From: a virus | Taxonomy: Duplodnaviria; Caudoviricetes | Strand: one strand, 5' to 3' | Length of the DNA: 64,000 nt | Virus record (IMG/VR): IMGVR_UViG_3300029305_000181 | Span: 3,097 to 67,096 of that record | Shown here: positions 3-55,282 of the stretch, piece by piece | How the letters are laid out: the number at the start of each line of letters is the position of its first letter | Position numbering within the stretch: position 1 is the stretch's first letter | Program-made: the position numbers and the translations under genes | Notes under the pieces: generated by a model | Databases searched by the model: none | What the model saw: only the letters and a program-made list of their open reading frames with translations | Told to the model about the DNA's origin: nothing

Positions 3-2288
3 ACCCGAGATGGTGGCGAGACTTTCGAAAAGAAGTTCCACTATCCCGAAAGCATGGACTCTAGTCGTATTAAGATTCGCTATAACGAAGAAGGCGGTCT
101 TGAAAAAGATGGTATTGTTGAAATAAGAAGAGGAGTTAACGACCTTTCCCTTGGCGAATCTAAATATTCTCAGGTTCGTATTCTTGTAGACGGTACACAT
201 TACATTAAGGGTATGGCAGTGTATTCTGACAACATGCCAGATGGTGTTGATGTTATCTTTAACACTAACAAGCATAGTGGTACTCCGATGACCAAGGTCC
301 TCAAAGAGATTAAGAAAGATCCCGATAATCCTTTCGGGTCTGCTATTAAGGATGCGGATCAGGGCGGTCAGTATTGGTATGACCCCAAAACCGGAAAGCA
401 TGTTAGTTCTAGTACACCTGGCGCTAAACTTGGCCTTATTAATAAGCGTGCTGATGAAGGCGATTGGAGTGAATGGAGTAATTCGCTCCCCTCTCAGTTC
501 TTAGCTAAGCAGAATCTTAGCCTTGCTAAGAAACAGCTTGGTATAGCCAAGGCCGATAAAGTAGCCGAGTATGAAGAGCTGTGTGCTCTTAATAATCCTA
601 CCATCAAAAAACATCTTCTTGCTAAGTTTGCCGATGAATGCGACTCCGCTGCCGTACATCTTAAGGCCGCCGCTCTTCCTGGTCAACAGTACCATGTTAT
701 AGCGCCTATTAATTCATTAAAGGATAATGAAGTATATGCACCTAATTATAAGGATGGCACTAAGTTAGCTCTTATCCGTTATCCTCATGGCGGTACTTTT
801 GAAATCCCAATCCTTACTGTAAATAATAAGAACGCGTTAGCGAAGGATATTTTAGGTACCGATACTGGCGATATTGTTGGTATTAGTAAAAAAAATGCAG
901 ACCGTTTATCTGGTGCGGACTTCGATGGCGATACCGTTATGTGTATTCCTACTCATAATGGTAAAGTCAAGATTACTTCTACCCCTCCTCTTAAAGGTCT
1001 TGAGAACTTCGAAGCGAAGGATATTTATGGCCCAGCTAGTTATGAAGGCAAGTCTGTTCGTTTAATGTCTAAGAAAGCTACCCAAACTCAAATGGGTATC
1101 ATTTCCAACCTTATTACCGATATGACTCTACATGGTGCTACTGATGATGAACTTGCTGCTGCTGTTAGACACAGTATGGTTGTTATTGATGCTGAAAAAC
1201 ATAAGCTTAACTATAAACAAAGTGAAATCGATAACAACATAGCGGCTCTTCATAAGAAGTACCAGGGTAAGTCTACTGGTGGCGCTTCTACTATTCTGTC
1301 TAAAGCCAAAGGCGAGTATTCTGTACCTAAGAGACAAGGCAGCCCTTATACAAACCTTAAAGGTAAAGAAGGATACGATCCTAACAGACCTGAGGGTGCT
1401 CTCATCTATAAGAAGGCTGACCCTGAGAATCTGTACAAACCAAAGTATACTACAAATAAGAAGACTGGTATTCGTACTTATACTACTATCGACGGGCAGA
1501 AGATTAAATTCGACCCCAACGATGCAGAAGCTAGAGCCGAGTATAGTCATGTTAAGAAAGTAAACAAAGATACTGGCGAAGTTACCTACACTAGTAAGAA
1601 TGGTAAGTACACCTATGCTTTGGAGGAGCGAACCCAAAAGAGCACTAAGATGGCAGAGACTGACGATGCATACACCCTGGTGTCTAAAGCTAGGCGTCCT
1701 ATGGAAATTGTCTATGCCGATTATGCTAATAGTATGAAGGCCCTGGCTAATCAAGCCCGTAAGGAAGTAGCTAGTACCGGTAGACTCGTGTACAACAAGA
1801 ATGCCGCCGCCACCTATAGTAAAGAAGTATCCTCCCTCAATGCTAAACTTAATACCGCCCTACTTAATACCACTAGGGAACGTGCCGCCCAGCGTCTTGC
1901 GAATGCTGACGTGCAAGCTAAACTGGACGCCGGTCAATTAGAAAAGGGTGATGTCAAGAAAGCAGGCCAAAGGGCACTTACTAAGTATAGGCAGGAAGTG
2001 GGCTCTGTCAATAGAAGAGACCGCAATATTAAGATCACAGACCGAGAATGGGAAGCTATTCAGGCCGGCGCTATTAGCGATAATACCCTTAAGAAGATAC
2101 TTAATAATGCAGACACCGATGTACTTAGACAGAGAGCTACACCTAGATCTACTACCACCCTTAGCACCGCCCAGATTAGTAGAGTTAAATCTATGCAAGC
2201 CCGAGGTTTAACACTAAGCCAGATGGCGGATAAACTTGGCGTATCTCCCACTACTGTATCTAACGCTTTGAAAGGAGTGAATGAATAA
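3..2288 (+). CDS. Single-subunit double-psi beta-barrel RNA polymerase-like protein (YonO / eukaryotic RdRP-related), 5'-truncated by the window edge, with C-terminal HTH
   Basis: GADFDGDT at nt 918-932 (DxDGD Mg-binding motif of two-barrel polymerases), upstream LIRYPH, C-terminal LSQMADKLGVSPTTVSNAL HTH. The frame is open from nt 3 (TRDGGETFEKKFHYPES) to the track's Met at 54. Confidence 0.75.
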   Translation, partial: TRDGGETFEKKFHYPESMDSSRIKIRYNEEGGLEKDGIVEIRRGVNDLSLGESKYSQVRILVDGTHYIKGMAVYSDNMPDGVDVIFNTNKHSGTPMTKVLKEIKKDPDNPFGSAIKDADQGGQYWYDPKTGKHVSSSTPGAKLGLINKRADEGDWSEWSNSLPSQFLAKQNLSLAKKQLGIAKADKVAEYEELCALNNPTIKKHLLAKFADECDSAAVHLKAAALPGQQYHVIAPINSLKDNEVYAPNYKDGTKLALIRYPHGGTFEIPILTVNNKNALAKDILGTDTGDIVGISKKNADRLSGADFDGDTVMCIPTHNGKVKITSTPPLKGLENFEAKDIYGPASYEGKSVRLMSKKATQTQMGIISNLITDMTLHGATDDELAAAVRHSMVVIDAEKHKLNYKQSEIDNNIAALHKKYQGKSTGGASTILSKAKGEYSVPKRQGSPYTNLKGKEGYDPNRPEGALIYKKADPENLYKPKYTTNKKTGIRTYTTIDGQKIKFDPNDAEARAEYSHVKKVNKDTGEVTYTSKNGKYTYALEERTQKSTKMAETDDAYTLVSKARRPMEIVYADYANSMKALANQARKEVASTGRLVYNKNAAATYSKEVSSLNAKLNTALLNTTRERAAQRLANADVQAKLDAGQLEKGDVKKAGQRALTKYRQEVGSVNRRDRNIKITDREWEAIQAGAISDNTLKKILNNADTDVLRQRATPRSTTTLSTAQISRVKSMQARGLTLSQMADKLGVSPTTVSNALKGVNE

Positions 2289-2548
2289 TGGCAAGCGATT
2301 GCATGCTTACTACTTATGACAATCCTTATGATCCGTTCGAACAGTTCACTCTTTGGTGGCTGTTCGATATAGAAAAAGGTTACAATTCTTGTAGTCGATT
2401 AGCAAGAATAGTTAATCTTTCTGATGACATGTCACAGCATGAGATCGACATTGAAACAGAAAGAGCAATTGATGAAATTATTAAATACGATTTCTTAGAT
2501 GTTTATAAGAAAGTAATTAAAAGTTCTAATGAAGAACCGATTAACTGA
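2288..2548 (+). CDS. Hypothetical protein (86 aa)
   Basis: SD AAGGAG upstream; start overlaps the RNAP stop. Confidence 0.7.
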   Translation: MASDCMLTTYDNPYDPFEQFTLWWLFDIEKGYNSCSRLARIVNLSDDMSQHEIDIETERAIDEIIKYDFLDVYKKVIKSSNEEPIN

Positions 2549-2671
2549 GGGAGTTAAACGAATAATGTACATTCCTGTATAAACATTCATCTAAGTTATG
2601 AGTTTAGTAATTAATCGAGCAATACAAAAACAATTAGTACATTAAAACTTATCTATGATGCATAAAGCATA

Positions 2672-2737
2672 GGGGAGGGGGTCGCAAAAAATACACCCCC
2701 TCCATACATCGCCGCCCTCCTAAATTTTTCTCCGGAG
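2672..2737. other. GC-rich hairpins upstream of the packaging module; possible genome-end/packaging site
   Basis: GGAGGGGGT(2674-2682)/ACCCCCTCC(2695-2703) and CCTCC/GGAGG stems in AT-rich intergenic DNA; function inferred from position only. Confidence 0.4.
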
Positions 2738-2760
2738 GGATATTTTTGAAAAGCATTTCG

Positions 2761-2917
2761 ACTTTAATAGCATATACGAGGGCTTACGAGGTTCGTGGTT
2801 GTGTCCATATTTCTCTCCACTCCTACCTTTTCTTTCTCTCTCCTTTCAAGTGATCTAAGAAGCGGCCTCGTAAGTCTTCTTATATGCTATTAAAGTTGTT
2901 AGAAAAGAGAGAGAAAG
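2761..2917 (+). repeat. 31-bp imperfect inverted repeat with loop/3' complementarity (candidate structured RNA)
   Basis: Arms 2761-2791 and 2866-2896 differ at 3 positions; loop 2832-2847 is complementary to 2902-2917 at 15/16 positions. Confidence 0.8.
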
Positions 2918-2961
2918 TATACGAAGACTATATTTGAAACTTAAGAAAGGAGGCAGTAAGT

Positions 2962-3297
2962 ATGGCGAAAGTAAAAGCGCCTGGTCCAACTAAGAAGATT
3001 AGACCCGCGTTATCTCCGGAAGCAAGACAGAATCAGTTGATATCTTTAGCTATTGATCTGGTAGAGCAGCGATTAATTGACGGAACTGCCTCTGCTCAGG
3101 AGACTGTGCATTTTCTAAAGCTCGCAACCCCAAAGTATAAGGTCGAGCAAGAAATTCTCGAGCGGGAGAAAGATTTAGTTAGCGCTAAGACTGAGGCTAT
3201 TAAGTCTACTGAAGAGCTTAAAGGGATTTATACCGAAGCGATTAAAGCTATGCGAAACTATAGCGGACAAGGTGATCCGGATGAGTACGAGAATTAA
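2962..3297 (+). CDS. Helical protein upstream of HNH; possible terminase small subunit
   Basis: SD AAGGAGG; position at the start of the packaging module; no diagnostic motif. Confidence 0.4.
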   Translation: MAKVKAPGPTKKIRPALSPEARQNQLISLAIDLVEQRLIDGTASAQETVHFLKLATPKYKVEQEILEREKDLVSAKTEAIKSTEELKGIYTEAIKAMRNYSGQGDPDEYEN

Positions 3298-3703
3298 AAG
3301 ATATTCTGAGCTGATACAATTACCAACTTTTAAAGAGCGCTATGAATACTTGAAACTTGATGGGCGAGTCGGTGAAGACACTTTCGGATTCGATCGTTAC
3401 CTCAATCAGATATTTTACCGTTCGCAAAAATGGAAGCGCATTCGTAATCAGGTAATCGTAAGAGACAATGGATGCGATCTTGGAATTGAAGGTTACGAAA
3501 TTAATGAGCGAATATTAATTCATCATATGAATCCGGTATCGCTTAAAGACGTCGAAGAAGAAACCGAATTTCTTTTAGATCCCGAGTATCTTATATCTAC
3601 AACTCACAATACTCACAACGCTATACACTACGGCGATTCGGGTCTACTCATTTTAGATCCGATTGTTAGAACAAAAAACGATACGTGTCCGTGGAGACAC
3701 TAA
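3281..3703 (+). CDS. HNH endonuclease (packaging-associated type)
   Basis: VRDNGCDLG...LIHHMNP...THNTHNAIH motifs; located before terL. Confidence 0.8.
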   Translation: MSTRIKRYSELIQLPTFKERYEYLKLDGRVGEDTFGFDRYLNQIFYRSQKWKRIRNQVIVRDNGCDLGIEGYEINERILIHHMNPVSLKDVEEETEFLLDPEYLISTTHNTHNAIHYGDSGLLILDPIVRTKNDTCPWRH

Positions 3704-3722
3704 AAATTTTTAGGAGGAAATT

Positions 3723-4085
3723 ATGAGTCACAAGAACTATAATAATTATTCCAAGCCTTATAGCCGTCCCGTTGAACCTGAAACTGTGATCGAGGAAGTC
3801 GAGACTATTCCGGTCGAGGAAACTCCCGAAGAGCCTTCCATGATCGAAGAGGCTCCCGTCGTTGAGTCCACTCCTATGATGGAAGTTACCGGCGTTGTTG
3901 TCGATTGCTCCAAGCTTAACATGCGATTCGAGCCTAGCTCTGATGCTGAGATTATGTGTACTCTGATTCGCGGCACCGAAGTGGTCATCGATGAAGCTGA
4001 GTCCACCGACGAGTTCTATGCAGTTTGCACTCCCGCCGGCATGGAAGGCTATTGTATGCGCAAGTACATTGAAGTCAATCCCTAA
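3723..4085 (+). CDS. Pro/Glu-rich N-terminus plus SH3b-like domain
   Basis: LNMRFEPSSDAEIMCTLIRGTEVVI...EGYCMRKYI resembles bacterial SH3 (LNVR...GWV) domains. Confidence 0.6.
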   Translation: MSHKNYNNYSKPYSRPVEPETVIEEVETIPVEETPEEPSMIEEAPVVESTPMMEVTGVVVDCSKLNMRFEPSSDAEIMCTLIRGTEVVIDEAESTDEFYAVCTPAGMEGYCMRKYIEVNP

Positions 4086-4096
4086 GGAGATTAATT

Positions 4097-4663
4097 ATGA
4101 CTAGTATACTGACATCAACTAAGAAACTTGCCGGTATGACAGAAGAGTACAAAGCCTACGACGATCAAATCATCATGTACATCAACAGTACGCTTCTCAG
4201 ATTAAAGCAGATTGGTGTCGGTCCTTCTGAAGGTTTTGTAGTTACCGGCTCTAGTGAAACCTGGGAACAGTTTATTCCTTATGATAAGTTTCTTCGTGAA
4301 TCGACTAAGGCATACATGGGCGCCAAGGTCCGAATGCAGTTCGATCCGCCTTCTGCCTCTTCTGCGCTAGAAGCGCTTAAGCAGATGATTAGCGAATACG
4401 AGTGGTGCCTTAATGCTGAAGCGGAAACTAAGATCATTGAATCTAGTCCCGAAGGTAAGACTATGGTCGGTATCGTTGTAGATTGTGTGAAGCTGGTTAT
4501 TCGAGTTAAGCCTGATCCTGATGCTGAAATCATAGGAGACATTCCTAAGGGAGCTCAGGTGATCATCAATGAAGATGAGTCGAATTCCGAGTTCTACATG
4601 GTGGTAACTTCTTCCGGTCTTAAGGGTTACTGTGATAAGGATTACATCGAGATTAAAACTTAA
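4097..4663 (+). CDS. Head-tail connector/adaptor-like protein fused to a C-terminal SH3b-like domain
   Basis: N-terminal SILTSTKKL...DDQIIMYIN...LKQIGVGP...VRMQFDPP helical adaptor pattern; C-terminus paralogous to 3723-4085. Confidence 0.55.
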   Translation: MTSILTSTKKLAGMTEEYKAYDDQIIMYINSTLLRLKQIGVGPSEGFVVTGSSETWEQFIPYDKFLRESTKAYMGAKVRMQFDPPSASSALEALKQMISEYEWCLNAEAETKIIESSPEGKTMVGIVVDCVKLVIRVKPDPDAEIIGDIPKGAQVIINEDESNSEFYMVVTSSGLKGYCDKDYIEIKT

Positions 4664-4668
4664 AAAGA

Positions 4669-5795
4669 AAGGAGGAATTCAAAATGGCGAACATTATTCC
4701 TATCGAGGTCAAGAAGACATGTTGTGATATGTTCGCAAGTGGGACCTCCTTAAGAGAAATCTATGATGATTACTTCGTCAACCAGTTTGATATTCCTCAA
4801 TCGTATAAAGCTTTTACAACTTCTATAAAGCGTTGGATGGATAAGAAGTATACAGAAGATCTCACTCTTGAGAAGGGTACTTATGAAGGCTTCATCGCTC
4901 ATGATGCTACGGTCCAGGTTAGCAAGGATGGCGAGATAATCCAGGCATGGATTAAGCAGCGAGCGGGAGACATTGATCTTGAGGAATTCCTGACCGGTGT
5001 CCGTGAAGCGGTCGAACCTTATGAGTATTCCGAGAAGACTTTCGAATCTTCTGACAGAATGCTCGAGATTCCTCTGTTCGATATGCATTGGGGTATAGCC
5101 TTTATGGATTACTATGAGCCGGTGCTTAATGAGATTCTCGGCATCATCAAAAGTCGGCACTGGGATTGCATCGTGATTCCTTTCGGTCAGGACTTCTTCC
5201 ACAATGACAGCATTGTAAATGGACAGACTACCAAGGGTACTGTAATTGAAAAAGTTGATATGGTTAGAGCCGTACGAGATGGCAAGCAGTTTATGTATGC
5301 TATCATCGATGCGGCTCTTTCTCATTCCAGCGAAGTGTCGGTTATGTACACCGCCGGTAACCATGACCGAAGCATCTCGTGGATGTTTGTCCAGGTGCTG
5401 CTCGAGCGCTATGGTAGCATCATTGTCGACGACTCTATTACTAATAGAAAAGTCGTAAGCTATGGCAAGAATGCTATCATGGTGACTCATGGCGATTCGA
5501 AGCAGGCTACTCCTAAGAATCTCGCTCAGATCTTCCCCGTTAGTTTCCCTACCGAGTTTGCTAATGCGACTGTTCGAGAGGTTCATGCGGGTCATCTTCA
5601 TCGTGAAGCTGAGTCTGACATTCATGGAGTTATGATCCGCAGACTGTCTACAGGCAGTAAGACCGATGAGTGGTCTGATAAGGAAGATTTCGTCGGTTCA
5701 CATAAAAGATTTATGCTGTTCGAATGGGATCTGAACAAGCTTAAATCCATCCATTACATATGAACATTCTCAGGGGAAGGAGGAATTCAAAATGG
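4669..5795 (+). repeat. 19-bp perfect direct repeats AAGGAGGAATTCAAAATGG flanking the phosphoesterase gene
   Basis: Copies at 4669-4687 and 5777-5795. Confidence 0.9.
4684..5763 (+). CDS. Calcineurin-like metallophosphoesterase
   Basis: Motifs DMHWG, GQDFFH, AGNHD, THGD, GHLH in canonical order. Confidence 0.85.
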   Translation: MANIIPIEVKKTCCDMFASGTSLREIYDDYFVNQFDIPQSYKAFTTSIKRWMDKKYTEDLTLEKGTYEGFIAHDATVQVSKDGEIIQAWIKQRAGDIDLEEFLTGVREAVEPYEYSEKTFESSDRMLEIPLFDMHWGIAFMDYYEPVLNEILGIIKSRHWDCIVIPFGQDFFHNDSIVNGQTTKGTVIEKVDMVRAVRDGKQFMYAIIDAALSHSSEVSVMYTAGNHDRSISWMFVQVLLERYGSIIVDDSITNRKVVSYGKNAIMVTHGDSKQATPKNLAQIFPVSFPTEFANATVREVHAGHLHREAESDIHGVMIRRLSTGSKTDEWSDKEDFVGSHKRFMLFEWDLNKLKSIHYI

Positions 5796-6304
5796 AGTAT
5801 GAATTATACCATCACGGTATCAAAGGCATGAAGTGGGGCGTTAGACGTTATCAGAACAAGGATGGCTCTCTGACCCCGGCTGGTAGAAAGCGCTACGATC
5901 GCGATATTAGCGAGAATAATGCTAAGAAGAAAGATAATCGCATTGTCATAGACGGCCCCGATGCTCGTCGTTGGGTTAAAGAAGATATTAGTAGAACTAA
6001 GAAAGTAGTAGATTCTACTTCCGATATGACTCGGCAGCTTAAGAACATCGAAAGTAGTACCAGAGGATCTTCTAAAAAACAAAAGCTGGATCTTAGTGGC
6101 ATGAGTGATCAGGAGCTTAGAGATCGTATTAATCGTGCCAATCTCGAGCGACAGTATAATGACTTATTCGCTCCGGAGCAAGCTCCTAAAATTTCTAAAG
6201 GCAGAGAGGTAGCTAGTTCTATACTCGATACCGCTGGCACTGTTCTTGCGGTTGGCAGCTCTGCTTTAGCTATAGCTCTTGCTATTAAGGAACTTAAGGG
6301 GTGA
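5792..6304 (+). CDS. HHGIKGMKWGVRR-leader protein 1 (DUF7211-like), hydrophobic C-terminal helix
   Basis: N-terminal YELYHHGIKGMKWGVRRYQNKDGSLTPAGRKRY. Confidence 0.75.
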   Translation: MEYELYHHGIKGMKWGVRRYQNKDGSLTPAGRKRYDRDISENNAKKKDNRIVIDGPDARRWVKEDISRTKKVVDSTSDMTRQLKNIESSTRGSSKKQKLDLSGMSDQELRDRINRANLERQYNDLFAPEQAPKISKGREVASSILDTAGTVLAVGSSALAIALAIKELKG

Positions 6305-8091: not shown

Positions 8092-9369
8092 ATTAGCAAT
8101 TATATTTTATACCATCATGGCATTAAAGGCATGAAGTGGGGCGTACGTCGATATCAGAATCAGGACGGTTCTTTAACCCCTGCGGGAAAGAAACGGTATT
8201 ACAATAATCCAGATCTTATCACGCAAAAGTCAGAATTAGATGCTGCTAAAAAGAGGATGAATGAATCTAGCAAAGTTGCGTCTAAAGCGTCAAACCGATA
8301 TCAAAATGTACCTACTCCTAAAAACTATCAAGTATACGAAGAAGCGCAAAAGCAATTTATATCGGATAGAACTAATTATAAGAATCTCAAACTGAAATAC
8401 GATACGAATAAAGAAGTTTCTAGAATTCGTGAAAAAGATATAGATTTTTCCGATAAATCCAAACATCGTTTGAAGCTAGAAGAACAGTATAAAAAGATGG
8501 GCATGAATGATGAAGAAGCTCAGGCTGCTGCTAACAATCGTATACGTACAGAAAAGCTGTTAGCTGCGTCCGCTGCGCTTACCATCGGTGCTTGTGCGGC
8601 ATATGCAGCTAATAAAGCCATTAAGAATAGAGTCGACGGTGTAATTAAGTCTGGTGATATTCTTCAGCGAATCGAGATGGAAGACACTAATGGTAAGCTT
8701 CACGATATGTTTTATGTCGCTAAAGGTAAACATGACAGTAAACGATATGAAGGTCTTCTTGGCATGGCTAGAAAGAATGAGACTGGTCATGCATATATGA
8801 TGAAGCTCGAAGCAATGGCGGATGTAAAAGTCGCATCTAAAGATAATGCGTCTAAGATATTCGGAGAACTTTATAAAAATGATCCAGAATTTAGATCTAC
8901 AGCTTCTAAATATGTCGGCGAGCATTTCTCGGGTCGTAATAAACTAGACCCCACAAATCTTAGCGATAGAAACATTAAGAAATTGTATGAAAATTTCAAT
9001 TCGAACATAATGTTTGTTCGTGAAGACGGTAAGGGCATAGATAAGCAATTTTATAGTAAGTTAAAATCCGCTGGTTATGGCGCTATTCAGGATATTAACG
9101 ATATGAAATTTAGCGGCTATAATGCTAAAAATCCTCTTATAATCTTTGATAACTCCAAGGGTAATATACTGGTTAAATCCTATAATGAGATGACAGAAAA
9201 TATTGGTAAAAAGGGCACCATCGAATCGATTAAAACGATTGGCGAGAGCTATACTAAAGAGTTTCTTAATAAAGGTTTACCGATGACAGCTATAGGTTTA
9301 ACTGGGGCTACAGCAGTTACATATAATAGCGATCCTAACAAGCAATACAAAAACTATAAAAGTAGGTGA
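8092..9369 (+). CDS. HHGIKGMKWGVRR-leader protein 2 with large C-terminal domain (possibly ADP-ribosyltransferase-like fold)
   Basis: Leader motif; SD AGGAGGTG followed by ATT at 8092 aligning with the paralogue's ATG; start uncertain (GTG 8083 is an alternative). Confidence 0.7.
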   Translation: MSNYILYHHGIKGMKWGVRRYQNQDGSLTPAGKKRYYNNPDLITQKSELDAAKKRMNESSKVASKASNRYQNVPTPKNYQVYEEAQKQFISDRTNYKNLKLKYDTNKEVSRIREKDIDFSDKSKHRLKLEEQYKKMGMNDEEAQAAANNRIRTEKLLAASAALTIGACAAYAANKAIKNRVDGVIKSGDILQRIEMEDTNGKLHDMFYVAKGKHDSKRYEGLLGMARKNETGHAYMMKLEAMADVKVASKDNASKIFGELYKNDPEFRSTASKYVGEHFSGRNKLDPTNLSDRNIKKLYENFNSNIMFVREDGKGIDKQFYSKLKSAGYGAIQDINDMKFSGYNAKNPLIIFDNSKGNILVKSYNEMTENIGKKGTIESIKTIGESYTKEFLNKGLPMTAIGLTGATAVTYNSDPNKQYKNYKSR

Positions 9370-9374: not shown

Positions 9375-10001
9375 ATGTCCGATTATGTTTTATACCACCA
9401 CGGTATTAAAGGCATGCGCTGGGGTGTACGTCGATATCAGAACAAAGACGGCTCTCTGACTCCGGCTGGTAAGAAGCGTCAGGCTAAGCAGGATTACCGT
9501 AACGCTAAAGATTCTGCGTTTGCTAAATATGAGAAAAGCATCGGCTCTATCGAAAAAGGTTATAAGCGTGGTCAGATGCTTTCTAAAAAAGATCAGGCTC
9601 GGGAAGAAGCAGCTGAGAATGAATACAATAAAGCTGCCGCGAAAGCCAAAAGCGATTATAAGAAGGCCAAGGCAGATATTAAGTCTGAAAAACGAGCTGC
9701 TAGACTACAGAAAAAGTATCCTGGAAAGAGCATAGAAAGCATCGATAAATACTATGATGAACAGAAAAAGTCGAGAAAGATGTTGAGGACAGCTGCCGGA
9801 GCTAAAATAGTCAGTCGTGCTATGAACGGAATGGGTCAGAGCTTGTACAATAAGTATAAAGATGGCGCTTCTCCGGCTGGTGTAAATGCTATAAGAGGTC
9901 TTGGTTACGCTTCTAAAGCTTTGAAACTTATCGGTGATGCTACTACGGTATCTGCGTATGCTAATCAATTTAAAGCGTATCAAGAGTTCATGCTGAGTTG
10001 A
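9375..10001 (+). CDS. HHGIKGMRWGVRR-leader protein 3, basic helical cargo
   Basis: MSDYVLYHHGIKGMRWGVRRYQNKDGSLTPAGKKR. Confidence 0.75.
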   Translation: MSDYVLYHHGIKGMRWGVRRYQNKDGSLTPAGKKRQAKQDYRNAKDSAFAKYEKSIGSIEKGYKRGQMLSKKDQAREEAAENEYNKAAAKAKSDYKKAKADIKSEKRAARLQKKYPGKSIESIDKYYDEQKKSRKMLRTAAGAKIVSRAMNGMGQSLYNKYKDGASPAGVNAIRGLGYASKALKLIGDATTVSAYANQFKAYQEFMLS

Positions 10002-14088: not shown

Positions 14089-14748
14089 ATGGCTAAACTT
14101 GTTTGGGATAATGTTGGCGAACGCTTTTATGAAACTGGTGTAAAGATGGGCGTTCTGTACCCCATGACCAATGATGGTACTTACCCTAAGGGCGTTGTTT
14201 GGAACGGTCTGACTGCCGTTACTGAAAGCCCCTCTGGCGCTGAGTCTACTCCTCTTTATGCTGATGACATTAAGTATCTTAACATGGTGTCTGCTGAGGA
14301 GTTCGGTGCTACCATCGAGGCTTATACTTACCCCGATGAATTCCTGATGTGTGACGGTTCTGCCGAAATCGCCACCGGTGTTACCGTCGGTCAGCAGGCT
14401 CGTCAGACTTTCGGTCTTTGCTACCGTACCGCTTTCGGTAATGATATTCAGAACAATGACTATGGTTATAAGATTCATATCATTTATGGTGCTCTGGCTG
14501 CTCCTTCCGAGAAGGCTTATGCCACCATCAATGATAGCCCCGAAGCTATTACTTTCTCTTGGGAAGTTAAGACCACTCCCGTCGTCGTCACTGGCTTTAA
14601 GCCTACTGCTAGCCTCGTGATCGACTCTACTAAGGTTGATAAGACCAAGCTGGCTGCTCTTGAGGCTGTTCTGTACGGTAGTGAGTCCGCTGAGGCTCGT
14701 CTGCCCATGCCCGATGAGATCGTTGAGCTCGTTGGTACTGCTGGCTAA
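14089..14748 (+). CDS. Major tail protein (phi13-like)
   Basis: KLVWDNVGERFYETGV...WNGLTAVTESPSGAE...YADDIKY. Confidence 0.88.
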   Translation: MAKLVWDNVGERFYETGVKMGVLYPMTNDGTYPKGVVWNGLTAVTESPSGAESTPLYADDIKYLNMVSAEEFGATIEAYTYPDEFLMCDGSAEIATGVTVGQQARQTFGLCYRTAFGNDIQNNDYGYKIHIIYGALAAPSEKAYATINDSPEAITFSWEVKTTPVVVTGFKPTASLVIDSTKVDKTKLAALEAVLYGSESAEARLPMPDEIVELVGTAG

Positions 14749-14765
14749 TAACTAACTTTATATTT

Positions 14766-14805
14766 AGGGGGTCGTATTCAGGAAAGGCTGGCGACCCCTC
14801 TTTTT
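14766..14805 (+). terminator. Intrinsic terminator after the major tail gene
   Basis: AGGGGGTCG...CGACCCCTC followed by TTTTT. Confidence 0.75.
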
Positions 14806-14826
14806 AATTTGAAAGGAGATAATTAA

Positions 14827-15261
14827 ATGATTAAGAGAACCATTACTTACACCGATTTCGACGGTAAGGAGAGAACCGAAGACGCTTATTTCAACATGAC
14901 TAAGAGCGAACTTATTGAGTTTTCTTTTGGTCTTCCTGATGAAATGACTGAGACTGTCAAGAGTACAGACGATGTTAATAATGAAACTGCCAATAAGCTG
15001 ATTGAAAAGCTTGGTAATTCCGGTATTTTCAATTTCGTTAAGGAACTGATCGTTAAGTCTTACGGTGTGAAGTCTGCTGATGGCAGACGGTTTATCAAGG
15101 ACGAGAAGGCTACGACCGAGTTTATGCAGACTCTGGCTTATGATGAGTTCATCATCGATCTTTTCAGTAACGATATGAAGGCTTCTGAATTTATTAACGG
15201 TATCATTCCTGCCGATATGGCTAATAAGATGCCTACTAATACTTTTAGAGCCGTTAACTAA
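14827..15261 (+). CDS. Tail assembly chaperone
   Basis: Synteny after MTP; TYTDFDGKERTEDAYFNMTKSEL pattern. Confidence 0.65.
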   Translation: MIKRTITYTDFDGKERTEDAYFNMTKSELIEFSFGLPDEMTETVKSTDDVNNETANKLIEKLGNSGIFNFVKELIVKSYGVKSADGRRFIKDEKATTEFMQTLAYDEFIIDLFSNDMKASEFINGIIPADMANKMPTNTFRAVN

Positions 15262-15287
15262 CTACGAATATTCGGGAGGGTTGAGAG

Positions 15288-15830
15288 ATGCTCCAAATCA
15301 CAGTACCGGCTGTTGAACTATGGGATGAAAAAAGACAGCTATTCATCAACGTAAAAGAACATAAAATACAGTTGGAGCATTCTCTCGTCTCCATTTCAAA
15401 ATGGGAATCCAAATGGTGTAAACCGTTTCTATCGAGAAATGACAAAACTGTAGAGGAAGTCCTAGATTATGTTAAATGCATGACTATTACTCAGAATGTA
15501 GATCCTGAGATTTATAAGTATCTTACTGAAGAGAATGTCGCTGCGATAAACGAGTATATCGATGCGCCCATGACTGCGACTACTTTTTCGGAAGATGGAC
15601 TTAGTAAAACTAATAGGGAAATTGTCACATCCGAGCTTATTTATTATTGGATGATCTCGTTAAACATACCTATTAAATTCGAAAAATGGCATTTGAATCG
15701 TCTGCTTACTTTAATACGAGTTTGTAATATTAAGAACTCTCCGCCTAAGAAGATGAGCAGAAAAGAGATACTAGCTCGTAATGCTGCTTTGAATGCAGAA
15801 CGGCGAAAGAAACTAAATACAAAGGGGTGA
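15288..15830 (+). CDS. Second tail assembly chaperone-like protein
   Basis: Own SD GGGAGG; synteny; ELIYYWMI...WHLNRLLTL. Confidence 0.55.
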   Translation: MLQITVPAVELWDEKRQLFINVKEHKIQLEHSLVSISKWESKWCKPFLSRNDKTVEEVLDYVKCMTITQNVDPEIYKYLTEENVAAINEYIDAPMTATTFSEDGLSKTNREIVTSELIYYWMISLNIPIKFEKWHLNRLLTLIRVCNIKNSPPKKMSRKEILARNAALNAERRKKLNTKG

Positions 15831-15835
15831 TTCAT

Positions 15836-16210
15836 ATGCGAAAAGACGTAGGGTATCGATTAGGACAGTCGCCTATTAATTACTTTTCTGATTTGTTTAT
15901 CGTTGCGATGGTCGTTATGTGGATTGTGGATAATGTCTATCAGTCTATTATAGCGACTATCGTTACTATCAGTTCAGCTATCCTAAGTAAGGAAACTGGA
16001 ATGAATTGCTATGACACTTCGATGTGGGCTTCTATTGGTGCTAATGTAGCCATTCCTCTATCATGCGGAGGTGCTATATGGATGATTAAAAATTCCATAC
16101 AGCATGCTATTAGCAATCGACGAGGCGAACAAGCAAAAGAAGATTTTCCGGCAGTTCATCCTGAATGCGAAAACGAAGAAATCGAGCTAGAGTCTCGAAA
16201 TGAATTTTAA
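15836..16210 (+). CDS. Two-TM membrane protein in the lysis cassette
   Basis: Hydrophobic segments LFIVAMVVMWIV...IATIVTISSAIL and IGANVAIPLSCGGAIWMI. Confidence 0.55.
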   Translation: MRKDVGYRLGQSPINYFSDLFIVAMVVMWIVDNVYQSIIATIVTISSAILSKETGMNCYDTSMWASIGANVAIPLSCGGAIWMIKNSIQHAISNRRGEQAKEDFPAVHPECENEEIELESRNEF

Positions 16211-16228
16211 AGAAGGAGAAAATTCAAA

Positions 16229-16546
16229 ATGGTTAATATTGAAACTTTTATGATTGGTCTTCTTATTACTTCTACTCTTACGGGCCTAGTTACTGAGGCT
16301 ATCAAGAAGATCGCTACCGAACATAATAAGACCTATCGAGCCAATACCCTTGCGGGCGTTGTATCTATGGTTCTGTCTGGCGCCATCGGCGTTTGTTATA
16401 ACGTTATTGGCAATGTCGGCTTTACCCAGCAGTCCGTTATTTGTATCGTCGCTCTTGTCTTTATGAGTTGGCTTTGTGCGATGGTTGGTTACGATAAGGT
16501 TATCCAGGCTATTAGTCAGTTTAAAACTACCGAAAAGGGTGAGTAA
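16229..16546 (+). CDS. Holin
   Basis: 105 aa, three hydrophobic helices, GYDKVIQAISQ C-terminus, immediately before the endolysin. Confidence 0.75.
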   Translation: MVNIETFMIGLLITSTLTGLVTEAIKKIATEHNKTYRANTLAGVVSMVLSGAIGVCYNVIGNVGFTQQSVICIVALVFMSWLCAMVGYDKVIQAISQFKTTEKGE

Positions 16547-16548
16547 TA

Positions 16549-17319
16549 ATGAGCGTTACAGCTAAAGCAGTACTCGATGTTGCGAGAAGTTGGATTGGGT
16601 ATAGTGAAGCGAATGGTAAGTACAAAGAAATTCTGAAGATCTATAACAATAATACAAGTGGTTATGACATGACTAATTCAGACCCTTGGTGCGATTGCTT
16701 TGTATCTGCCGTAGCTATTAAAGCTGGTGCCGTCGACATTATCGGTACTGAAGTAGGTTGTGAGCGTCACATCGCTATCTTCAAGAAGCTTGGTATTTGG
16801 ATTGAAGATGGTAAGGTCAAGCCTCAAGTAGGCGACATTATTGTGTTTAACTGGGATGATAGCACCCAACCGAACGATGGTTTTGCCGACCATATTGGCT
16901 TTGTCGAAGCTATAAACGGTAATACTATTACCTGTATCGAGGGTAATATGAATGATGCTGTTGGCAGACGTAACATATACGCTGGCTGGGGGTACATTCG
17001 AGGTTATGCTAGACCCAAGTACGGGGCAAGCTCTAACACAACAACTAATACTACTAAAACGCAGACGGTAGCTACTAAGTCTACTGTTAAATGTACAGTT
17101 TCTATCAATCAACTTCAAAATGGAGATAAAGGCAATCAAGTCAAGGCTCTCCAGAAGCTTTTGATCAGCTATGGATATTCTTGCGGTAAATACAAGGATG
17201 ACGGCGAATTCGGTACAGATACTGAAGCTGCTGTTAAGAAGTATCAGAAAGCTAATAAGCTCGAAGTTGACGGCGTAGTTGGCATAAATACTTGGAATAA
17301 ACTTCTGGGCATTAAGTAA
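16549..17319 (+). CDS. Endolysin: CHAP domain + Thr-rich linker + peptidoglycan-binding domain
   Basis: PWCDCFVS...HIGFVE...IEGN (CHAP); VKALQKLL...DGEFG...VKKYQ...LEVDGVVG (PG_binding_1). Confidence 0.88.
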   Translation: MSVTAKAVLDVARSWIGYSEANGKYKEILKIYNNNTSGYDMTNSDPWCDCFVSAVAIKAGAVDIIGTEVGCERHIAIFKKLGIWIEDGKVKPQVGDIIVFNWDDSTQPNDGFADHIGFVEAINGNTITCIEGNMNDAVGRRNIYAGWGYIRGYARPKYGASSNTTTNTTKTQTVATKSTVKCTVSINQLQNGDKGNQVKALQKLLISYGYSCGKYKDDGEFGTDTEAAVKKYQKANKLEVDGVVGINTWNKLLGIK

Positions 17320-17339
17320 ATGAGTTAAGAGGTGGTTGT

Positions 17340-17717
17340 ATGATAACTTTCAAACACCGGGGTAACTTCTCTAAAACGACTCGTTTTTTAGAGAGAGCCA
17401 AAGAGGTCGTCAACCTCGGAGTCCTCGACAAATACGGTCGAGAAGGAGTTGCTGCTCTGGCATCTGCAACCCCTACTGATTCTGGTTTAACGGCTAACTC
17501 GTGGTACTACGAAATAGAGCGTGGTAGAGGCTATGCCACGATTACCTATAACAATTCGCATGTTAATAAAGGTGTTTCTATAGCCATCATTTTACAGTAC
17601 GGACATGGAACCGGAACTGGAGGCTGGGTACAGGGTCGTGATTACATCAATCCTGCTATCCAGCCTATTTTTGATAAAATCGCTAATGATGCATGGGAGG
17701 AGGTTACTAAATTATGA
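17340..17717 (+). CDS. HK97 gp10-like neck/tail component
   Basis: TPTDSGLTANSW...IILQYGHGTGTGGWVQGRDYINPA. Confidence 0.7.
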   Translation: MITFKHRGNFSKTTRFLERAKEVVNLGVLDKYGREGVAALASATPTDSGLTANSWYYEIERGRGYATITYNNSHVNKGVSIAIILQYGHGTGTGGWVQGRDYINPAIQPIFDKIANDAWEEVTKL

Positions 17718-20700
17718 GTAGATCAGTAGATGAAAGAATAGTATCGATGCAATTCGATAATCGACAGTTCGAAAGAAATGCCGCTACTAGTATGTCGACT
17801 CTTGAGAAACTTAAACAGAGTTTAAACTTTACTGGTGCTTCTAAAGGATTGGAAAATGTAAATTCTGCTGCTAAGAGCGTTAATATGTCTGGTTTAGGCA
17901 ACGCTGTTGAAACTGTCGCCGCTAAATTCTCAGCTTTACAAGTAATGGGAGTAACCGCCCTTGCTAACATAACGAATTCCGCAGTTAATACGGGTAAGAG
18001 AATGATCTCCGCATTAACTATAGATCCTATTAAAACTGGTTTCACTGAGTATGAAACCAAGATGAACGCTATCCAAACAATTATGTCCAATACTGCTAGT
18101 AAAGGCACAACTATGGATGACGTTACTAGAGTTATCGGTGAATTGAATACTTATGCGGATAAGACTATTTATAATTTCGCAGAGATGACTCGAAATATCG
18201 GTACCTTTACCGCGGCTGGTGTTGGGCTCGAAGAATCTGCTTCTGCAATTCAGGGTATAGCGAACTTAGCGGCTATGTCTGGTTCTAGTTCACAACAGGC
18301 ATCTACTGCAATGTATCAGCTTTCTCAGGCTATGGCCTCTGGCACAGTTAAGCTCATGGACTGGAACTCGGTCGTTAACGCTGGTATGGGCGGTGAATTA
18401 TTCCAGAATGCGTTAAAGGAAACTGCTAGAACTCATGGCGTAGCAGTAGATGAAATGATTAAGAAAAACGGTTCTTTTAGAGAATCGTTACAAGAAGGTT
18501 GGATAACGACTGATATTCTTACCGAAACTTTGTCTAAAATGACTAAGAGTGGCGCAGCTGAATATTTGTCCAACTTAACCGGCGTCGAACAAGATCAGAT
18601 AATTGCTGCACAGAAACTTGTTGCAGAAAATAAAAACGGAACAGCGTCTTATGATGAACTTGCTGAGAAACTTGCTGCCACTGGTAAAGTATCTAAAGAG
18701 CAGGCTATGGATATTCTTAAGATGGCTGATAATGCTGAAGACGCTGCAACTAAGGTAAAAACATTCACCCAGTTATGGGACACCCTTAAGGAATCCGCAC
18801 AGTCTGGTTGGTCACAAACTTGGGAAATTCTTATAGGCGACTTCGAAGAAGCAAAAGAGACATTAACCGAGATTTCCAAAGTCATTGGGTCGGTGCTTGA
18901 AGCGTCAGCTAAAGCTCGTAACGATCTACTTCAAGGATGGAAGGACGCTGGCGGTCGAGCTGATATAGTCGATTCATTATTTAATGTTTTTAAGGCGATC
19001 GGTAGTGTTGTTGCGCCGATAAAAGAAGCATTCAGAGACATATTTCCTCCGATTACAGTTAAGAATCTTAAAGATTTATCTGAAGGTCTTAAAAAGTTCA
19101 CCGAAAATCTTACGATTAGTTCCGATGTTGCCGACAAAGTAAAACGTATATTTAAGGGCGTATTCTCTATCATTGATATTGGTAGAAAGATTGTGGTAAG
19201 CGTAGCTGATGCATTTTTAAAGTTGGCTGGTTCTGACGGTATTGGCGGTCTTTCTAAATTCCTTTTAGATGCTACTGCGTCTCTTGGCGATTTCTTCACC
19301 TCTCTTAATGATGGTTTTGATGCCAGTGGATTATCTGGTTTTATGTCGACTTTAGTCGATTTGATATCCGATTTGATAGAAGGCACCCTCGGTCCGATTG
19401 AGAGTTTTGGCGATGCGATTGCGGCCATTGGCGGAGTTATTAAAAATGTTGCCAAATGGATATGGGATACGGTTAAACCCGTATTCGAATGGATTAGGGA
19501 TAACGTTTCCGCTGGCGATATTTTTGCAGGTCTCGCTGGCGGTGGTGTATTTGTAGCTGCTAAGAAAATAACAGGTTTCCTCGATAAGATTATTGAAGCT
19601 ATTAAAGGACTTTTCGGCGGAAAAGACGACGGTCCTAGCATTAAAGAGAAGTTGGCCGATCTTTTAGATGGTGTTAAAGACACACTTAATGCGTTTTCTA
19701 CCGGTATAAAGATAGGATCTATATTAGCTATTTCTATTGCTGTTGGTATTCTGTCTGCTGCACTTAAGTCCATTTCAGAAATCGATGTTGGGGCAGCTAT
19801 TAAATCTTTAACCGTTATAGGGGCTATGATGGGTATGCTGACATTAACAATGTCGACCATGACTAAGACATTGAATAAATTTGAGCCTAAAGGTCTCGGT
19901 AAAGCGGCATTCTCGTTGATATTAGTATCCACTGCAATTCTTATTTTATCATCTGCTATGGAGAAAATAGCTCAGTTATCTTTTAAAGAAATAGTTAAAG
20001 GTCTTATCGGTGTTGGTGGCGGTTTAATAATCCTTTCCGCCGGTCTTAAAATCATAGGTGAGACTAAAATCCCATTAAGTACTAGTATCGCGATGATAGC
20101 GTTAGCTAAGGCTTGTGAGATGCTCGGCGAAGCTATGCAAAAGTTTGCAACATTGACCTGGGAACAAATAGCTCGTGGTCTGTCCGCTATGGGCGGGGCT
20201 TTATTAGAGTTGACTGGCGTTATGGCTGTATTGCAGAAATTTGGAGGCTTTAAGTCTTTACTTAGTAGTATAGGTATATTTGTCGTAGTTCAATCTCTTG
20301 ATGACTTGGCCGCAGCTCTTAAAAGTTTCGGCGAAATGCAATGGGATGAAATCGGTCGTGGCTTAGCTGCCATGGGTGGTACCCTTGGCGAATTAGCTAT
20401 TACGTTAGGCGGTCTCGGAACATTGGCTGGATTTTCTAGTATATTCGCGTCTGGCGCGATATCTATAGTTATAACTAGTTTGGACGAACTTGCTATCGCA
20501 TTAAAAAGTTTCGGCGAAATGCAATGGGATGAAATAACTCGTGGTTTAGCAGCTATGGGTGGAGCTTTACTTGAAGTAAGCGGTTTTACAGGTGCTTTAG
20601 GTAAAATTTCTGGATTTTCGTCTATATTTGGAGCTGGCGCGATAGCTATAGTTATATCTAGTTTGGATGAACTCGCTAACGATCTTGTTAAATTTGGAGC

Positions 20701-27643: not shown

Positions 27644-27659
27644 ACGGAGGATCATGTAA

Positions 27660-29104: not shown

Positions 29105-29115
29105 GGGGTGGTTGT

Positions 29116-29910: not shown

Positions 29911-29918
29911 GGTGGAAT

Positions 29919-30209
29919 ATGAAAACAATCTATATTGATTCGGATTTTAAATGCCACGTTTCGAATGATGATACAATGCGAGCCGTGGAGACAGATTTTT
30001 TTGACGGCAAATGCGAAGCGTACATCGAGGGTTACCGCTTTGTCCCGGAAGGTGAGAGTTGGACGAGAGATGACGGAGAAGTATTCACCGGCGAAATGAT
30101 TTCTCCGTGGGTTGACTGGCACGAATTGGATTCTGCTCAGCGAGTGTATGAGAAAACTATTCTCTCTGAATACGAAGAAGCGCTTAAGACGGTGGGGGTG
30201 GAAGTATGA
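29919..30209 (+). CDS. Small tail-associated hypothetical protein
   Basis: SD GAGGTGG; MKTIYIDSDFKCH start. Confidence 0.6.
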   Translation: MKTIYIDSDFKCHVSNDDTMRAVETDFFDGKCEAYIEGYRFVPEGESWTRDDGEVFTGEMISPWVDWHELDSAQRVYEKTILSEYEEALKTVGVEV

Positions 30210-30866: not shown

Positions 30867-30870
30867 ACAA

Positions 30871-30910
30871 AAAGAGGGGCTAGCGACTGCTACAACCCCT
30901 CTTCTTTTTG
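30871..30910. terminator. Intrinsic terminator at the end of the late operon
   Basis: AAAAGAGGGG...CCCCTCTTCTTTTT. Confidence 0.7.
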
Positions 30911-30912
30911 CT

Positions 30913-30942
30913 TTCGCGAATTATACAAGTCCTCTTATGGAA
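30913..30942 (+). promoter_or_regulatory. Phage motif copy 1 (TTCGCG-N6-ACAA-N6-TWATG)
   Basis: TTCGCG AATTAT ACAA GTCCTC TTATG. Confidence 0.7.
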
Positions 30943-30973
30943 GGAAGACATATCAAATAAAGGAGTGTTTATC

Positions 30974-33610: not shown

Positions 33611-33640
33611 GAGAGGGTCTTTATGGCTCTCTTTTTTTTT
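33611..33640 (+). terminator. Intrinsic terminator
   Basis: GAGAG...CTCTC followed by T9. Confidence 0.7.
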
Positions 33641-33668
33641 CGCGTTAAATACAGTTCCTCTTATGAGA
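33639..33668 (+). promoter_or_regulatory. Phage motif copy 2
   Basis: TTCGCG TTAAAT ACAG TTCCTC TTATG. Confidence 0.7.
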
Positions 33669-33912: not shown

Positions 33913-33940
33913 GCCTAAAGAAACTTAGGCTCTTTCTTTT
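33911..33940 (+). terminator. Terminator, repeated family
   Basis: GAGCCTAA-AGAAAC-TTAGGCTC-TTTCTTTT. Confidence 0.8.
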
Positions 33941-33969
33941 TCGCGAAATTTACAAATAGTATTATGAGA
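33940..33969 (+). promoter_or_regulatory. Phage motif copy 3
   Basis: TTCGCG AAATTT ACAA ATAGTA TTATG. Confidence 0.75.
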
Positions 33970-34141: not shown

Positions 34142-34172
34142 GAGTCTAAGAAAACTTAGACTCTTTCTTTTT
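34142..34172 (+). terminator. Terminator, repeated family
   Basis: GAGTCTAAG-AAAA-CTTAGACTC-TTTCTTTTT. Confidence 0.8.
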
Positions 34173-34200
34173 CGCGAAATTTACAAATAGTATTATGAGA
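34171..34200 (+). promoter_or_regulatory. Phage motif copy 4 (identical core to copy 3)
   Basis: TTCGCG AAATTT ACAA ATAGTA TTATG. Confidence 0.75.
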
Positions 34201-34501: not shown

Positions 34502-34714
34502 ATGGAGTGGCTTATTTGGGTATGCGGGGTTTTCGTAGGGGTGTTTATTTCTATATTTTTGTCTAGAAAACTCAAACATGGGACCTTAAAAATCGATCAC
34601 TCAAATCCGGAAAAAGACGTATATCGTTTCGAGATTGATGATATCGATAAACTTAATAGTAAACGATATATTACGTTGAGAATCGACCACAACGCTGATC
34701 TTTCGCAAAATTAA
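34502..34714 (+). CDS. Small protein with N-terminal TM helix
   Basis: SD AAGGAG; MEWLIWVCGVFVGVFISIFL. Confidence 0.65.
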   Translation: MEWLIWVCGVFVGVFISIFLSRKLKHGTLKIDHSNPEKDVYRFEIDDIDKLNSKRYITLRIDHNADLSQN

Positions 34715-34731
34715 CAACCACTATTATGGAA
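34702..34731 (+). promoter_or_regulatory. Phage motif copy 5
   Basis: TTCGCA AAATTA ACAA CCACTA TTATG. Confidence 0.7.
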
Positions 34732-35530: not shown

Positions 35531-35560
35531 TTCGCGAAAATTGCAATCGCCTTTATGAGA
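35531..35560 (+). promoter_or_regulatory. Phage motif copy 6
   Basis: TTCGCG AAAATT GCAA TCGCCT TTATG. Confidence 0.7.
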
Positions 35561-35759: not shown

Positions 35760-35789
35760 TTCGCGAAATTTACAAGCGGTATTATGAGA
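35760..35789 (+). promoter_or_regulatory. Phage motif copy 7, directly upstream of a tRNA-like RNA
   Basis: TTCGCG AAATTT ACAA GCGGTA TTATG. Confidence 0.75.
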
Positions 35790-36810: not shown

Positions 36811-36840
36811 TTCGCGATATCTACAACTAGTATTATGGAA
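36811..36840 (+). promoter_or_regulatory. Phage motif copy 8
   Basis: TTCGCG ATATCT ACAA CTAGTA TTATG. Confidence 0.7.
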
Positions 36841-37838: not shown

Positions 37839-37868
37839 TTCGCGAAATTTACAAGACATATTATGAGA
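37839..37868 (+). promoter_or_regulatory. Phage motif copy 9
   Basis: TTCGCG AAATTT ACAA GACATA TTATG. Confidence 0.75.
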
Positions 37869-46689: not shown

Positions 46690-46719
46690 TTCGCGAAAAT
46701 TACAAAGTGTTTAATGGAG
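46690..46719 (+). promoter_or_regulatory. Phage motif copy 10, ahead of the tRNA cluster
   Basis: TTCGCG AAAATT ACAA AGTGTT TAATG. Confidence 0.7.
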
Positions 46720-54994: not shown

Positions 54995-55024
54995 TTCGCG
55001 AATCTTACAACTCCTATAATGAAA
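54995..55024 (+). promoter_or_regulatory. Phage motif copy 11
   Basis: TTCGCG AATCTT ACAA CTCCTA TAATG. Confidence 0.7.
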
Positions 55025-55252: not shown

Positions 55253-55282
55253 TTCGCGAAAAATGCAAACCACTTTATGAGA
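55253..55282 (+). promoter_or_regulatory. Phage motif copy 12
   Basis: TTCGCG AAAAAT GCAA ACCACT TTATG. Confidence 0.7.

Follow-up and report, generated by a model that had tools for sequence, protein, structure and literature searches.

Single-chain RNA polymerases (RNAPs) built on two double-psi beta-barrels (DPBBs) are encoded by various bacteriophages, with YonO of the Bacillus prophage SPbeta (PMC5467207) as well as gp64 and gp96 of phage P23-45 and gp66 of phi14:2, a crAss-like phage (PMC10770324), being active DNA-dependent enzymes of this superfamily. YonO is a protein of about 100 kDa from a Firmicutes siphovirus and is not reported to carry fused helix-turn-helix (HTH) modules; according to its authors, neither its promoter nor a possible requirement for cofactors is known (PMC5467207). 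The Thermus phage enzymes, i.e., the non-virion proteins gp64 of P23-45 and gp62 of P74-26 and the virion-associated, tape-measure-fused gp96, as well as the crAss-like gp66 read promoter motifs of their own (PMC10770324). A protein of Lactococcus phage 1706 represents one of the five 'YonO-like' families distinguished by Ruprich-Robert and Thuriaux (2010; PMC2919709), and its layout with HTHs at both ends and a DxDGD loop was described by Koert et al. (2021; bioRxiv 10.1101/842583), who obtained an HHpred match to the Pfam family PF05183 at a probability of 95.7%, recognized a signature gene of a supercluster of actinophages and Firmicutes phages and concluded that the protein 'could potentially have RNA polymerase activity.' This family, already known from sequence analysis, not new here and biochemically uncharacterized, also includes, as judged by homology, the open reading frame (ORF) at the left end of the DNA analyzed in this study, a stretch of 64,000 nucleotides (the window, bases 3097-67096 of the 67,096-bp viral record IMGVR_UViG_3300029305_000181) from an uncultured gut phage. 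The ORF product is best explained as a single-chain two-DPBB RNAP, and the explanation as a whole, including the inferred transcription of the phage's own genes, is assigned a probability of roughly 0.6. New here are the fixed spacing of a three-box sequence element across phages that encode this RNAP and infect Streptomyces, Arthrobacter, Lactococcus or gut bacteria, a gene for 86 amino acids that always comes next after the RNAP gene, and a 'structural protein' label on the phage 1706 homologue as a hint at an enzyme carried in the virion.

Gene, family and catalytic core

In the window, the ORF has an open 5' end and comprises 761 amino acids (aa; Table 1). The complete RNAP gene was recovered from the whole record, to which all positions labeled as record refer, and spans record 2391-5384, encoding 997 aa; its ATG at record 2391 is located 9 nt 3' of AAGGAGG and 705 nt upstream of the window, in agreement with an earlier note on this DNA that had placed the N-terminus outside. 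That note had ascribed a phage-encoded two-barrel polymerase to the ORF on the basis of LIRYPH, GADFDGDT and a terminal HTH, all of which are found in frame in our own translation, the second at 912-935 and the third, LSQMADKLGVSPTTVSNAL, at 2214-2270, with DFDGD lying exactly where it had been claimed.

Comparison with PHROGs assigns the protein to phrog_4291, 'RNA-dependent RNA polymerase' over its full length (E=0, 1204.7 bits; residues 16-735 aligned to positions 7-708 of the profile, and a further stretch), together with gp75 of Lactococcus phage 1706, the 'putative RNA polymerase' of Faecalibacterium phage Oengus and members of the actinophage clusters BI, AU and DJ. A word-indexed metagenomic search returned at least 8,000 related proteins, many of them from contigs of 55-70 kb, and an exhaustive search with a limit of E<=1e-30 resulted in 921 clusters at 50% identity. 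By tblastn, 251 phage records match, and in 249 the match covers 80% of the length or more, with hosts being Arthrobacter (95), Gordonia (55), Streptomyces (54), Lactococcus (13, 1706-like), Faecalibacterium, Rhodococcus and others. Identities in these records are nearly all below 60% (37-45% among the matches listed); the closest deposited phage record is 61% identical and the closest metagenomic proteins reach up to 76%. The homologues from phage 1706, Oengus and the actinophage clusters BI, AU, DJ and CC are full-length (37-45% identity over 93-100% of the query) and share with the present protein the HTH-polymerase-HTH layout, the DxDGD loop, the gene position, a small downstream gene and the three-box motif. 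As here, the gene order in relatives is a Cas4-like exonuclease gene, then the RNAP gene, then packaging genes. In contrast to the 1706-type relatives, the present copy is from an uncultured 67-kb gut phage with direct terminal repeats of 127 bp, and due to this genome form the RNAP gene is found near the left and not the right end of the record.

For the catalytic core, an AlphaFold2 model built from 70 homologues (mean predicted local distance difference test, pLDDT, 87.6; predicted template modeling score, pTM, 0.80) contains two DPBB domains arranged like beta/beta' and QDE-1. The fold that the earlier note had expected in a predicted structure is thus present, and in a Foldseek search against the PDB QDE-1 ranked first (E 3e-7, probability 1), followed by RDR2, gp64 of Thermus phage P32 and gp62 of P74, gp96 of P23-45 (E 1e-3) and then Rpb1/beta', with probabilities of 1.0 also for RDR2 and gp64. 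Structural alignment with VIA gave a Z of 15.2 to QDE-1 (2j7n; 376 aligned residues, root-mean-square deviation 4.6, model residues 253-831), 15.1 to maize RDR2, 12.1 to gp62, 11.8 to gp64 and about 11 to beta'/Rpb1 chains over about aa 455-660, while a structure search in BFVD returned phage 'RdRP' proteins, P23-45 gp64 and crAss-like proteins. The chain starts with a disordered peptide, followed by two HTHs and one winged helix. The beta-like barrel comes next and is separated by a helical connector from the beta'-like barrel, behind which lie the bridge-like helices and then a beta insertion of variable nature (aa ~674-784), at which the alignments of many homologues break into two stretches. 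Long helices follow, and the C-terminus is formed by two HTH modules. The assignment of aa 593-657 to a bridge helix is inferred from position only.

The beta'-like barrel bears the DxDGD loop (D542, D544 and D546) and the R-x-P motif (R495 and P497), and R495, P497 and S539-G-A-D542-x-D544-G-D546 are invariant in 128 representatives with 44-63% identity; the catalytic residues are likewise invariant in the 70-homologue set. Further invariant columns are Q293, R295, K305-G306, D319 and K337. Of the universal two-barrel residues, which include Rpb1 R446, P448 and D479/D481/D483 and Rpb2 K979, K987 and D837 (PMC2919709), five of eight are assignable by motif, with the remaining three belonging to the beta-like barrel. 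Considering the PHROG match at E=0 and the catalytic residues invariant in 128 representatives, the observation is far beyond chance. Hence, the ascription to a phage-encoded two-DPBB polymerase is borne out by the fold matches to QDE-1, RDR2 and Thermus phage gp64/gp62 and by the intact metal-binding loop, and, as far as the model and these residues can tell, this identity is well supported. A PDB search with the single sequence gave no match, and a profile search against the PDB gave HTH proteins plus a borderline beta' match (E 1.2) over the segment from R-x-P to DxDGD. In a Pfam scan of the full protein, the matching models were all HTH (groups at aa ~102-135 and ~955-995), and PF05183 was not found by hmmscan of the full protein at E<=0.1. 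This RNA-dependent RNA polymerase (RdRP) family appeared at 15 bits (E 2.2e-4, aa ~534-639, model positions 427-536), below its cut-off of 23.8.

The fold matches also bear on the name of the family, several RefSeq entries being called 'RNA-dependent RNA polymerase' and most SEA-PHAGES entries 'helix-turn-helix DNA-binding domain protein.' A true RdRP copying phage or host transcripts into double-stranded RNA or antisense RNA would fit with QDE-1 and RDR2 as best structural matches, with PF05183 as the sole Pfam family touched by the catalytic domain and with the name in use by RefSeq and PHROGs. However, this name is derived from homology and not from an assay, and every characterized phage member of the superfamily is DNA-dependent, as far as the available texts cover them (PMC10770324, PMC5467207). 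QDE-1 itself accepts DNA templates, too (PMC9508822). Moreover, the similarity to QDE-1 of Neurospora and plant RDR2, extending over both barrels and the following helices (Z 15, ~340-380 residues), is at 12-15% identity, and these eukaryotic silencing enzymes are devoid of HTH ends, unlike the present protein with up to five modules of a type binding double-stranded DNA (dsDNA) fused to the enzyme. With no RdRP role known in a dsDNA siphovirus, such a function is very improbable.

As a further reading, the protein could serve chiefly in DNA-binding regulation or as a primase for replication, having a two-barrel core that makes short primers only or is vestigial. Besides the naming in most SEA-PHAGES records, the gene position at the end of the replication module and next to the Cas4-like exonuclease is in line with this. 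The catalytic residues, however, are invariant in the alignments of 70 and 128 homologues from a family of more than 900 clusters, which indicates selection on the enzymatic function of the core, and the phage already possesses a primase-polymerase (phrog_4210), so a regulator or primase is hardly to be expected. Both labels in use are probably misleading.

DNA-binding modules at both ends

According to the model and Pfam, the N-terminal 240 residues consist of the disordered peptide, tri-helical HTHs at aa ~72-98 and ~100-135 and a winged helix at aa ~137-219. The HTH at aa 103-135, outside the window, scores highest on HTH_23 (33.4 bits) and also passes the cut-offs of Sigma70_r4_2 (31.0 versus 25.7) and Sigma70_r4 (27.0 versus 24.1). 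Membership in the sigma-70 family cannot be derived from this, as HTH_23 is the better match, the fold is generic and Sigma70_r2 was searched for in the genome and not found anywhere. When folded alone (pLDDT 95.5), the N-terminal domain gave no Foldseek match at E<=1e-3 and, by VIA, generic winged-helix matches only (TFIIIC tau138 eWH, GntR and MarR; Z <= 7.5). ESM Atlas searches with both termini returned the family's own members only.

At the opposite end, the three-helix module at aa 912-948, for which no Pfam match of its own was found, is probably an HTH, as judged from the model. The polymerase indeed ends in a genuine HTH (HTH_3 at 23.1 bits versus a cut-off of 23). The earlier note had called it sigma4-like, but Sigma70_r4_2 reaches only 11.7 bits (E 0.2) versus a cut-off of 25.7 and is outscored by HTH_3, HTH_10 and HTH_38 alike; by its profile scores, this is a generic HTH and not specifically of the sigma-4 type. 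The further terms 'DNA-dependent' and 'one-chain holoenzyme' are inferences, with indirect support from a candidate promoter conserved in the lineage and a genome lacking sigma region 2. 'Sigma4-like' and 'holoenzyme' were over-specific wording for an underlying idea that is reasonable. In having such modules the protein also differs from YonO, which is compared here by description (no fused HTHs in the available text of PMC5467207), and from the Thermus and crAss phage RNAPs, which are much smaller or differently fused, none being described with HTH or winged-HTH (wHTH) arrays.

The disordered N-terminal peptide (HYG..(R/H)SGRYPxGSG..PYQH; record 2451-2525, aa 20-45, outside the window; pLDDT <50) contains six residues invariant in the family, G25, S30, G31, R32, G36 and G38, and resembles a short motif for binding or targeting. 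Separately, a DUF7211 leader, YHHGIKGMKWGVRRYQN, is present at the N-terminus of three proteins encoded near terL and the portal gene (5792-6304, 8092-9369 and 9375-10001; 36.7-38.4 bits versus a cut-off of 27). A relationship between peptide and leader was considered and is not supported (hhalign over 11 columns, P 0.059; hidden Markov model of the peptide, E 7.5-32).

The three-box element and its possible reader

Recurring in the window is a 30-bp motif, TTCGCG-N4-TTACA-N5-TAT(A/T)(A/G)T-(G)AGA, with copy 1 having the form TTCGCG-N4-TTACA-N5-TATTAT-GAGA. A pattern search of the window gave 10 matches and none in shuffles, and in a scan with a position weight matrix (PWM) all 12 window copies (Table 1) scored 32-45 bits, with nothing else above 18. 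These copies stand before early/middle genes. Four additional ones are located at record 425, 768, 1266 and 1420 (425-1449), upstream of the operon encoding the endonuclease, the exonuclease and the RNAP, and every copy in the genome is on the coding strand. By a 16-mer scan of IMG/VR, 10 contigs with identical spacing were found, nine of which encode the RNAP at 55-68% identity, with the motif always on the strand of the RNAP gene; among contigs with a single 16-mer match, the RNAP is encoded in one of four. In cultured phages, the same spacing is evident from 12 copies in Lactococcus phage 1706 (e.g., TTCGCATGTTTTACATATACTATAGTAGAA), five in Streptomyces phage Scap1 (CTCGCAAGTTTTACAGCCTCTATAGTGAGACC) and six in Arthrobacter phage Correa (TTCGCGTAAATTACATGGGCTATAATAGAAG), resulting in the consensus TCGC[G/A]-N5-TTACA-N5-TAT[A/T][A/G]T-[G]AGA with identical spacing in RNAP-bearing phages from the gut, Lactococcus, Streptomyces and Arthrobacter. 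Outside the present record, copies range over 24036-42910 (L008), 22653-26890 (L128) and 14473-17790 plus 43464 (L129). The assumption that MT835495, encoding an RNAP with 61% identity, is without the motif was dropped, as the PWM revealed a strong copy (30.6 bits) and also a weak one upstream of the RNAP gene there. The three-box sequences were sought in the searchable literature and no mention was found; the motifs of the Thermus and crAss phage RNAPs (PMC10770324) are unrelated.

The early region is also rich in intrinsic-terminator-like hairpins, with 16 found on the plus strand of 30000-39000 versus 6.1 expected, while sigma-70-type promoters are not enriched there (23 versus 22.9 in shuffles). 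A second scanned region gave similar values (13 terminators versus 4.1 expected; 17 sigma-70-type promoters versus 16.2). Within the 9-kb early region, the motif copies sit just downstream of terminators. From its conservation and placement, the three-box motif would be the best candidate promoter for the present RNAP, and the RNAP with its HTH arrays the obvious candidate for its reader, as suggested by co-occurrence within one lineage. A conserved phage protein is the simplest reader, given that the exact spacing is kept in phages of two bacterial phyla.

Accordingly, the proposed function consists of steps with differing probability. Quite probably, the protein is an active DNA-templated RNAP transcribing the phage's own genes. 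Initiation at the 30-bp three-box element before early/middle genes and before the operon of the RNAP itself is somewhat favored. Whether the terminal HTH/wHTH modules would make the promoter contacts that sigma makes for cellular RNAP is nearly balanced, with doubt slightly prevailing. Finally, for the RNAP to read three-box sites, it would have to be available by the time the early genes are switched on, suggesting carriage in the virion; that some enzyme might be packaged in this way, letting the three-box promoters fire at the start of infection, is put forward only tentatively. In line with such carriage, the depositors of phage 1706 label the homologue orf75 'structural protein,' likewise small ORFs of the replication region. 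This labeling pattern looks like one from proteomics rather than from homology. ReqiPoco6 gp106 carries the same label, copied from 1706. Examples of phage RNAPs packaged in virions are N4 vRNAP, crAss gp66 and P23-45 gp96.

Alternatively, the enzyme could be a late polymerase resembling YonO, with host RNAP, alone or together with a phage activator, reading the three-box element, and the RNAP being a middle gene product that transcribes the co-oriented late operon of about 28 kb, comprising packaging, structural and lysis genes, from a start site in the gap at 2548-2962 just 3' of its gene. In SPbeta, the late genes are read by YonO as a single operon whose start lies upstream of a non-coding RNA (PMC5467207). 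The present gene directly precedes the late operon and follows the strong copy at record 1420, no three-box copy is found within 2288-30900, and box 3 equals the consensus -10 hexamer. In contrast, the geometry of the element is not sigma-70-like, as TTCGCG (box 1) is located 14 bp and TTACA (box 2) 5 bp from the -10-like hexamer and a TG extension is missing. Boxes 1 and 2 are kept between phages of Actinomycetota and Bacillota, pointing to a reader that the phage encodes and that is at hand once the early genes are switched on, and the 1706 homologue bears the structural label. The position of the RNAP gene fits both a virion-borne and a YonO-like late enzyme. Overall, the late-polymerase scheme is rather unlikely.

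Nevertheless, several points weigh against a promoter-reading, DNA-dependent RNAP as the preferred explanation. The link between promoter and enzyme consists in co-occurrence in one phage lineage, and shared ancestry alone could produce such a link. Box 3 matches the sigma-A -10 hexamer perfectly (TATAAT/TATTAT), so that host RNAP assisted by a phage activator is a possible reader. Covariation of the HTH recognition helices with the box sequences was looked for in 13 phages and no clear pattern emerged. The sequence does not reveal which template is preferred, and QDE-1 and RDR2, the nearest folds with a solved structure, are enzymes of the RNA-dependent or dual type. For the Lys/Asp positions in the beta-like barrel there are invariant candidates only, namely K305 (H-x-x-K-G), R295/K337 and D319/D299. 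Virion association rests on a single unexplained annotation label, and a literature search for a biochemical study of any member of the phrog_4291 family found none.

Directly 3' of the RNAP gene, an 86-aa protein is encoded (Table 1) that has 4,897 homologues and is found at the same place in 1706, ReqiPoco6, Scap1 and Correa (31-51% identity). From this conserved arrangement, it is a candidate accessory factor or cofactor of the RNAP. In its most far-reaching form, the preferred reading would be a sigma-independent, self-targeting RNAP whose N- and C-terminal HTH/wHTH arrays read the ~30-bp promoter. Carried in the virion via the invariant N-terminal peptide, it would need no host RNAP for transcribing the early genes and the operon it belongs to, and the 86-aa protein would be its cofactor. 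This full combination appears doubtful.

Table 1. Coordinates of the polymerase parts, the downstream gene and the three-box elements in the window.
Feature	Position	Strand	Basis or remark
C-terminal 761 codons and stop of the 997-aa RNAP gene	3..2288	+	frame translation; phrog_4291 E=0
First (beta-like) double-psi barrel, aa ~255-330	57..284	+	model strands; alignment of about aa 251-831 to QDE-1/RDR2
Invariant residues of the beta-like barrel: R258, G273, R278, Q293, R295, K305-G306, G317, D319	57..284	+	
Second (beta'-like) double-psi barrel, aa ~465-552	687..950	+	model and structural alignment
LIRYPH, R495-x-P497 motif, equivalent to Rpb1 R446/P448	771..788	+	invariant columns; PMC2919709
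DFDGD catalytic metal-binding loop, D542/D544/D546	918..932	+	invariant columns; sub-threshold PF05183
Helices aa 593-657 after the second barrel, putative bridge-helix/trigger position	1071..1265	+	model
Invariant residues of the aa 593-657 helices: M600, G601, N605, D609, D632, K635, H636	1071..1265	+	
Beta-rich, poorly conserved insertion, aa ~674-784	1314..1646	+	model; split homologue alignments
Long C-terminal helices aa 802-902, clamp position	1698..2000	+	model; invariant E804, Y807, Y841, R899
Three-helix module ITDxEWEAIQAGAIS..., aa 912-948, probable HTH	2028..2138	+	helices 916-923, 929-937, 941-948; W919, A921, I922 conserved
Terminal HTH, aa 955-995	2157..2279	+	HTH_3, HTH_38, HTH_10; pLDDT 66-78
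86-aa gene, phrog_4303	2288..2548	+	ATG overlaps RNAP stop codon (TAATG)
Three-box candidate promoter, copy 1/12	30913..30942	+	
Three-box candidate promoter	33639..33668	+	
Three-box candidate promoter	33940..33969	+	
Three-box candidate promoter	34171..34200	+	
Three-box candidate promoter	34702..34731	+	
Three-box candidate promoter	35531..35560	+	
Three-box candidate promoter	35760..35789	+	
Three-box candidate promoter	36811..36840	+	
Three-box candidate promoter	37839..37868	+	
Three-box candidate promoter	46690..46719	+	
Three-box candidate promoter	54995..55024	+	
Three-box candidate promoter	55253..55282	+	

Other genome features and significance

A second repeated sequence, TCAAAATGG, is present in 15 copies at 4679-30366, on the plus strand only and in the virion-gene half only, with about six of the 15 lying on a start codon just after the ribosome-binding site. 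In the related phage MT835495, 11 copies are found in the late half (L005 9698-38748), and the two pairs compared are in matching context, one of them at a gene start. At the genome ends (63800-64000 and record 1-127), the 127-bp repeat and about 70 nt before it are dense in TGGCCA(C/G)T words between T-runs, which may be binding sites of packaging or replication proteins. Besides, two adjacent genes at 3723-4085 and 4097-4663 each end in SH3_3, and the second also contains the phage connector domain PF24829.

How single-chain two-barrel RNAPs find their promoters is still an open question, as stated for YonO by its authors (PMC5467207). The family considered here is very common, with at least 8,000 metagenomic proteins and more than 250 cultured phages, and includes members that are easily cultured, such as L. 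lactis phage 1706 and the SEA-PHAGES Arthrobacter and Streptomyces phages. An enzyme with its own DNA-binding modules in combination with a sharply defined, conserved candidate promoter is a good experimental target, and with this pairing a single protein and a short piece of DNA suffice to test how a minimal relative of cellular RNAP would initiate at a specific promoter. Moreover, a rifampicin-insensitive, compact and orthogonal RNAP-promoter pair could be a useful tool.

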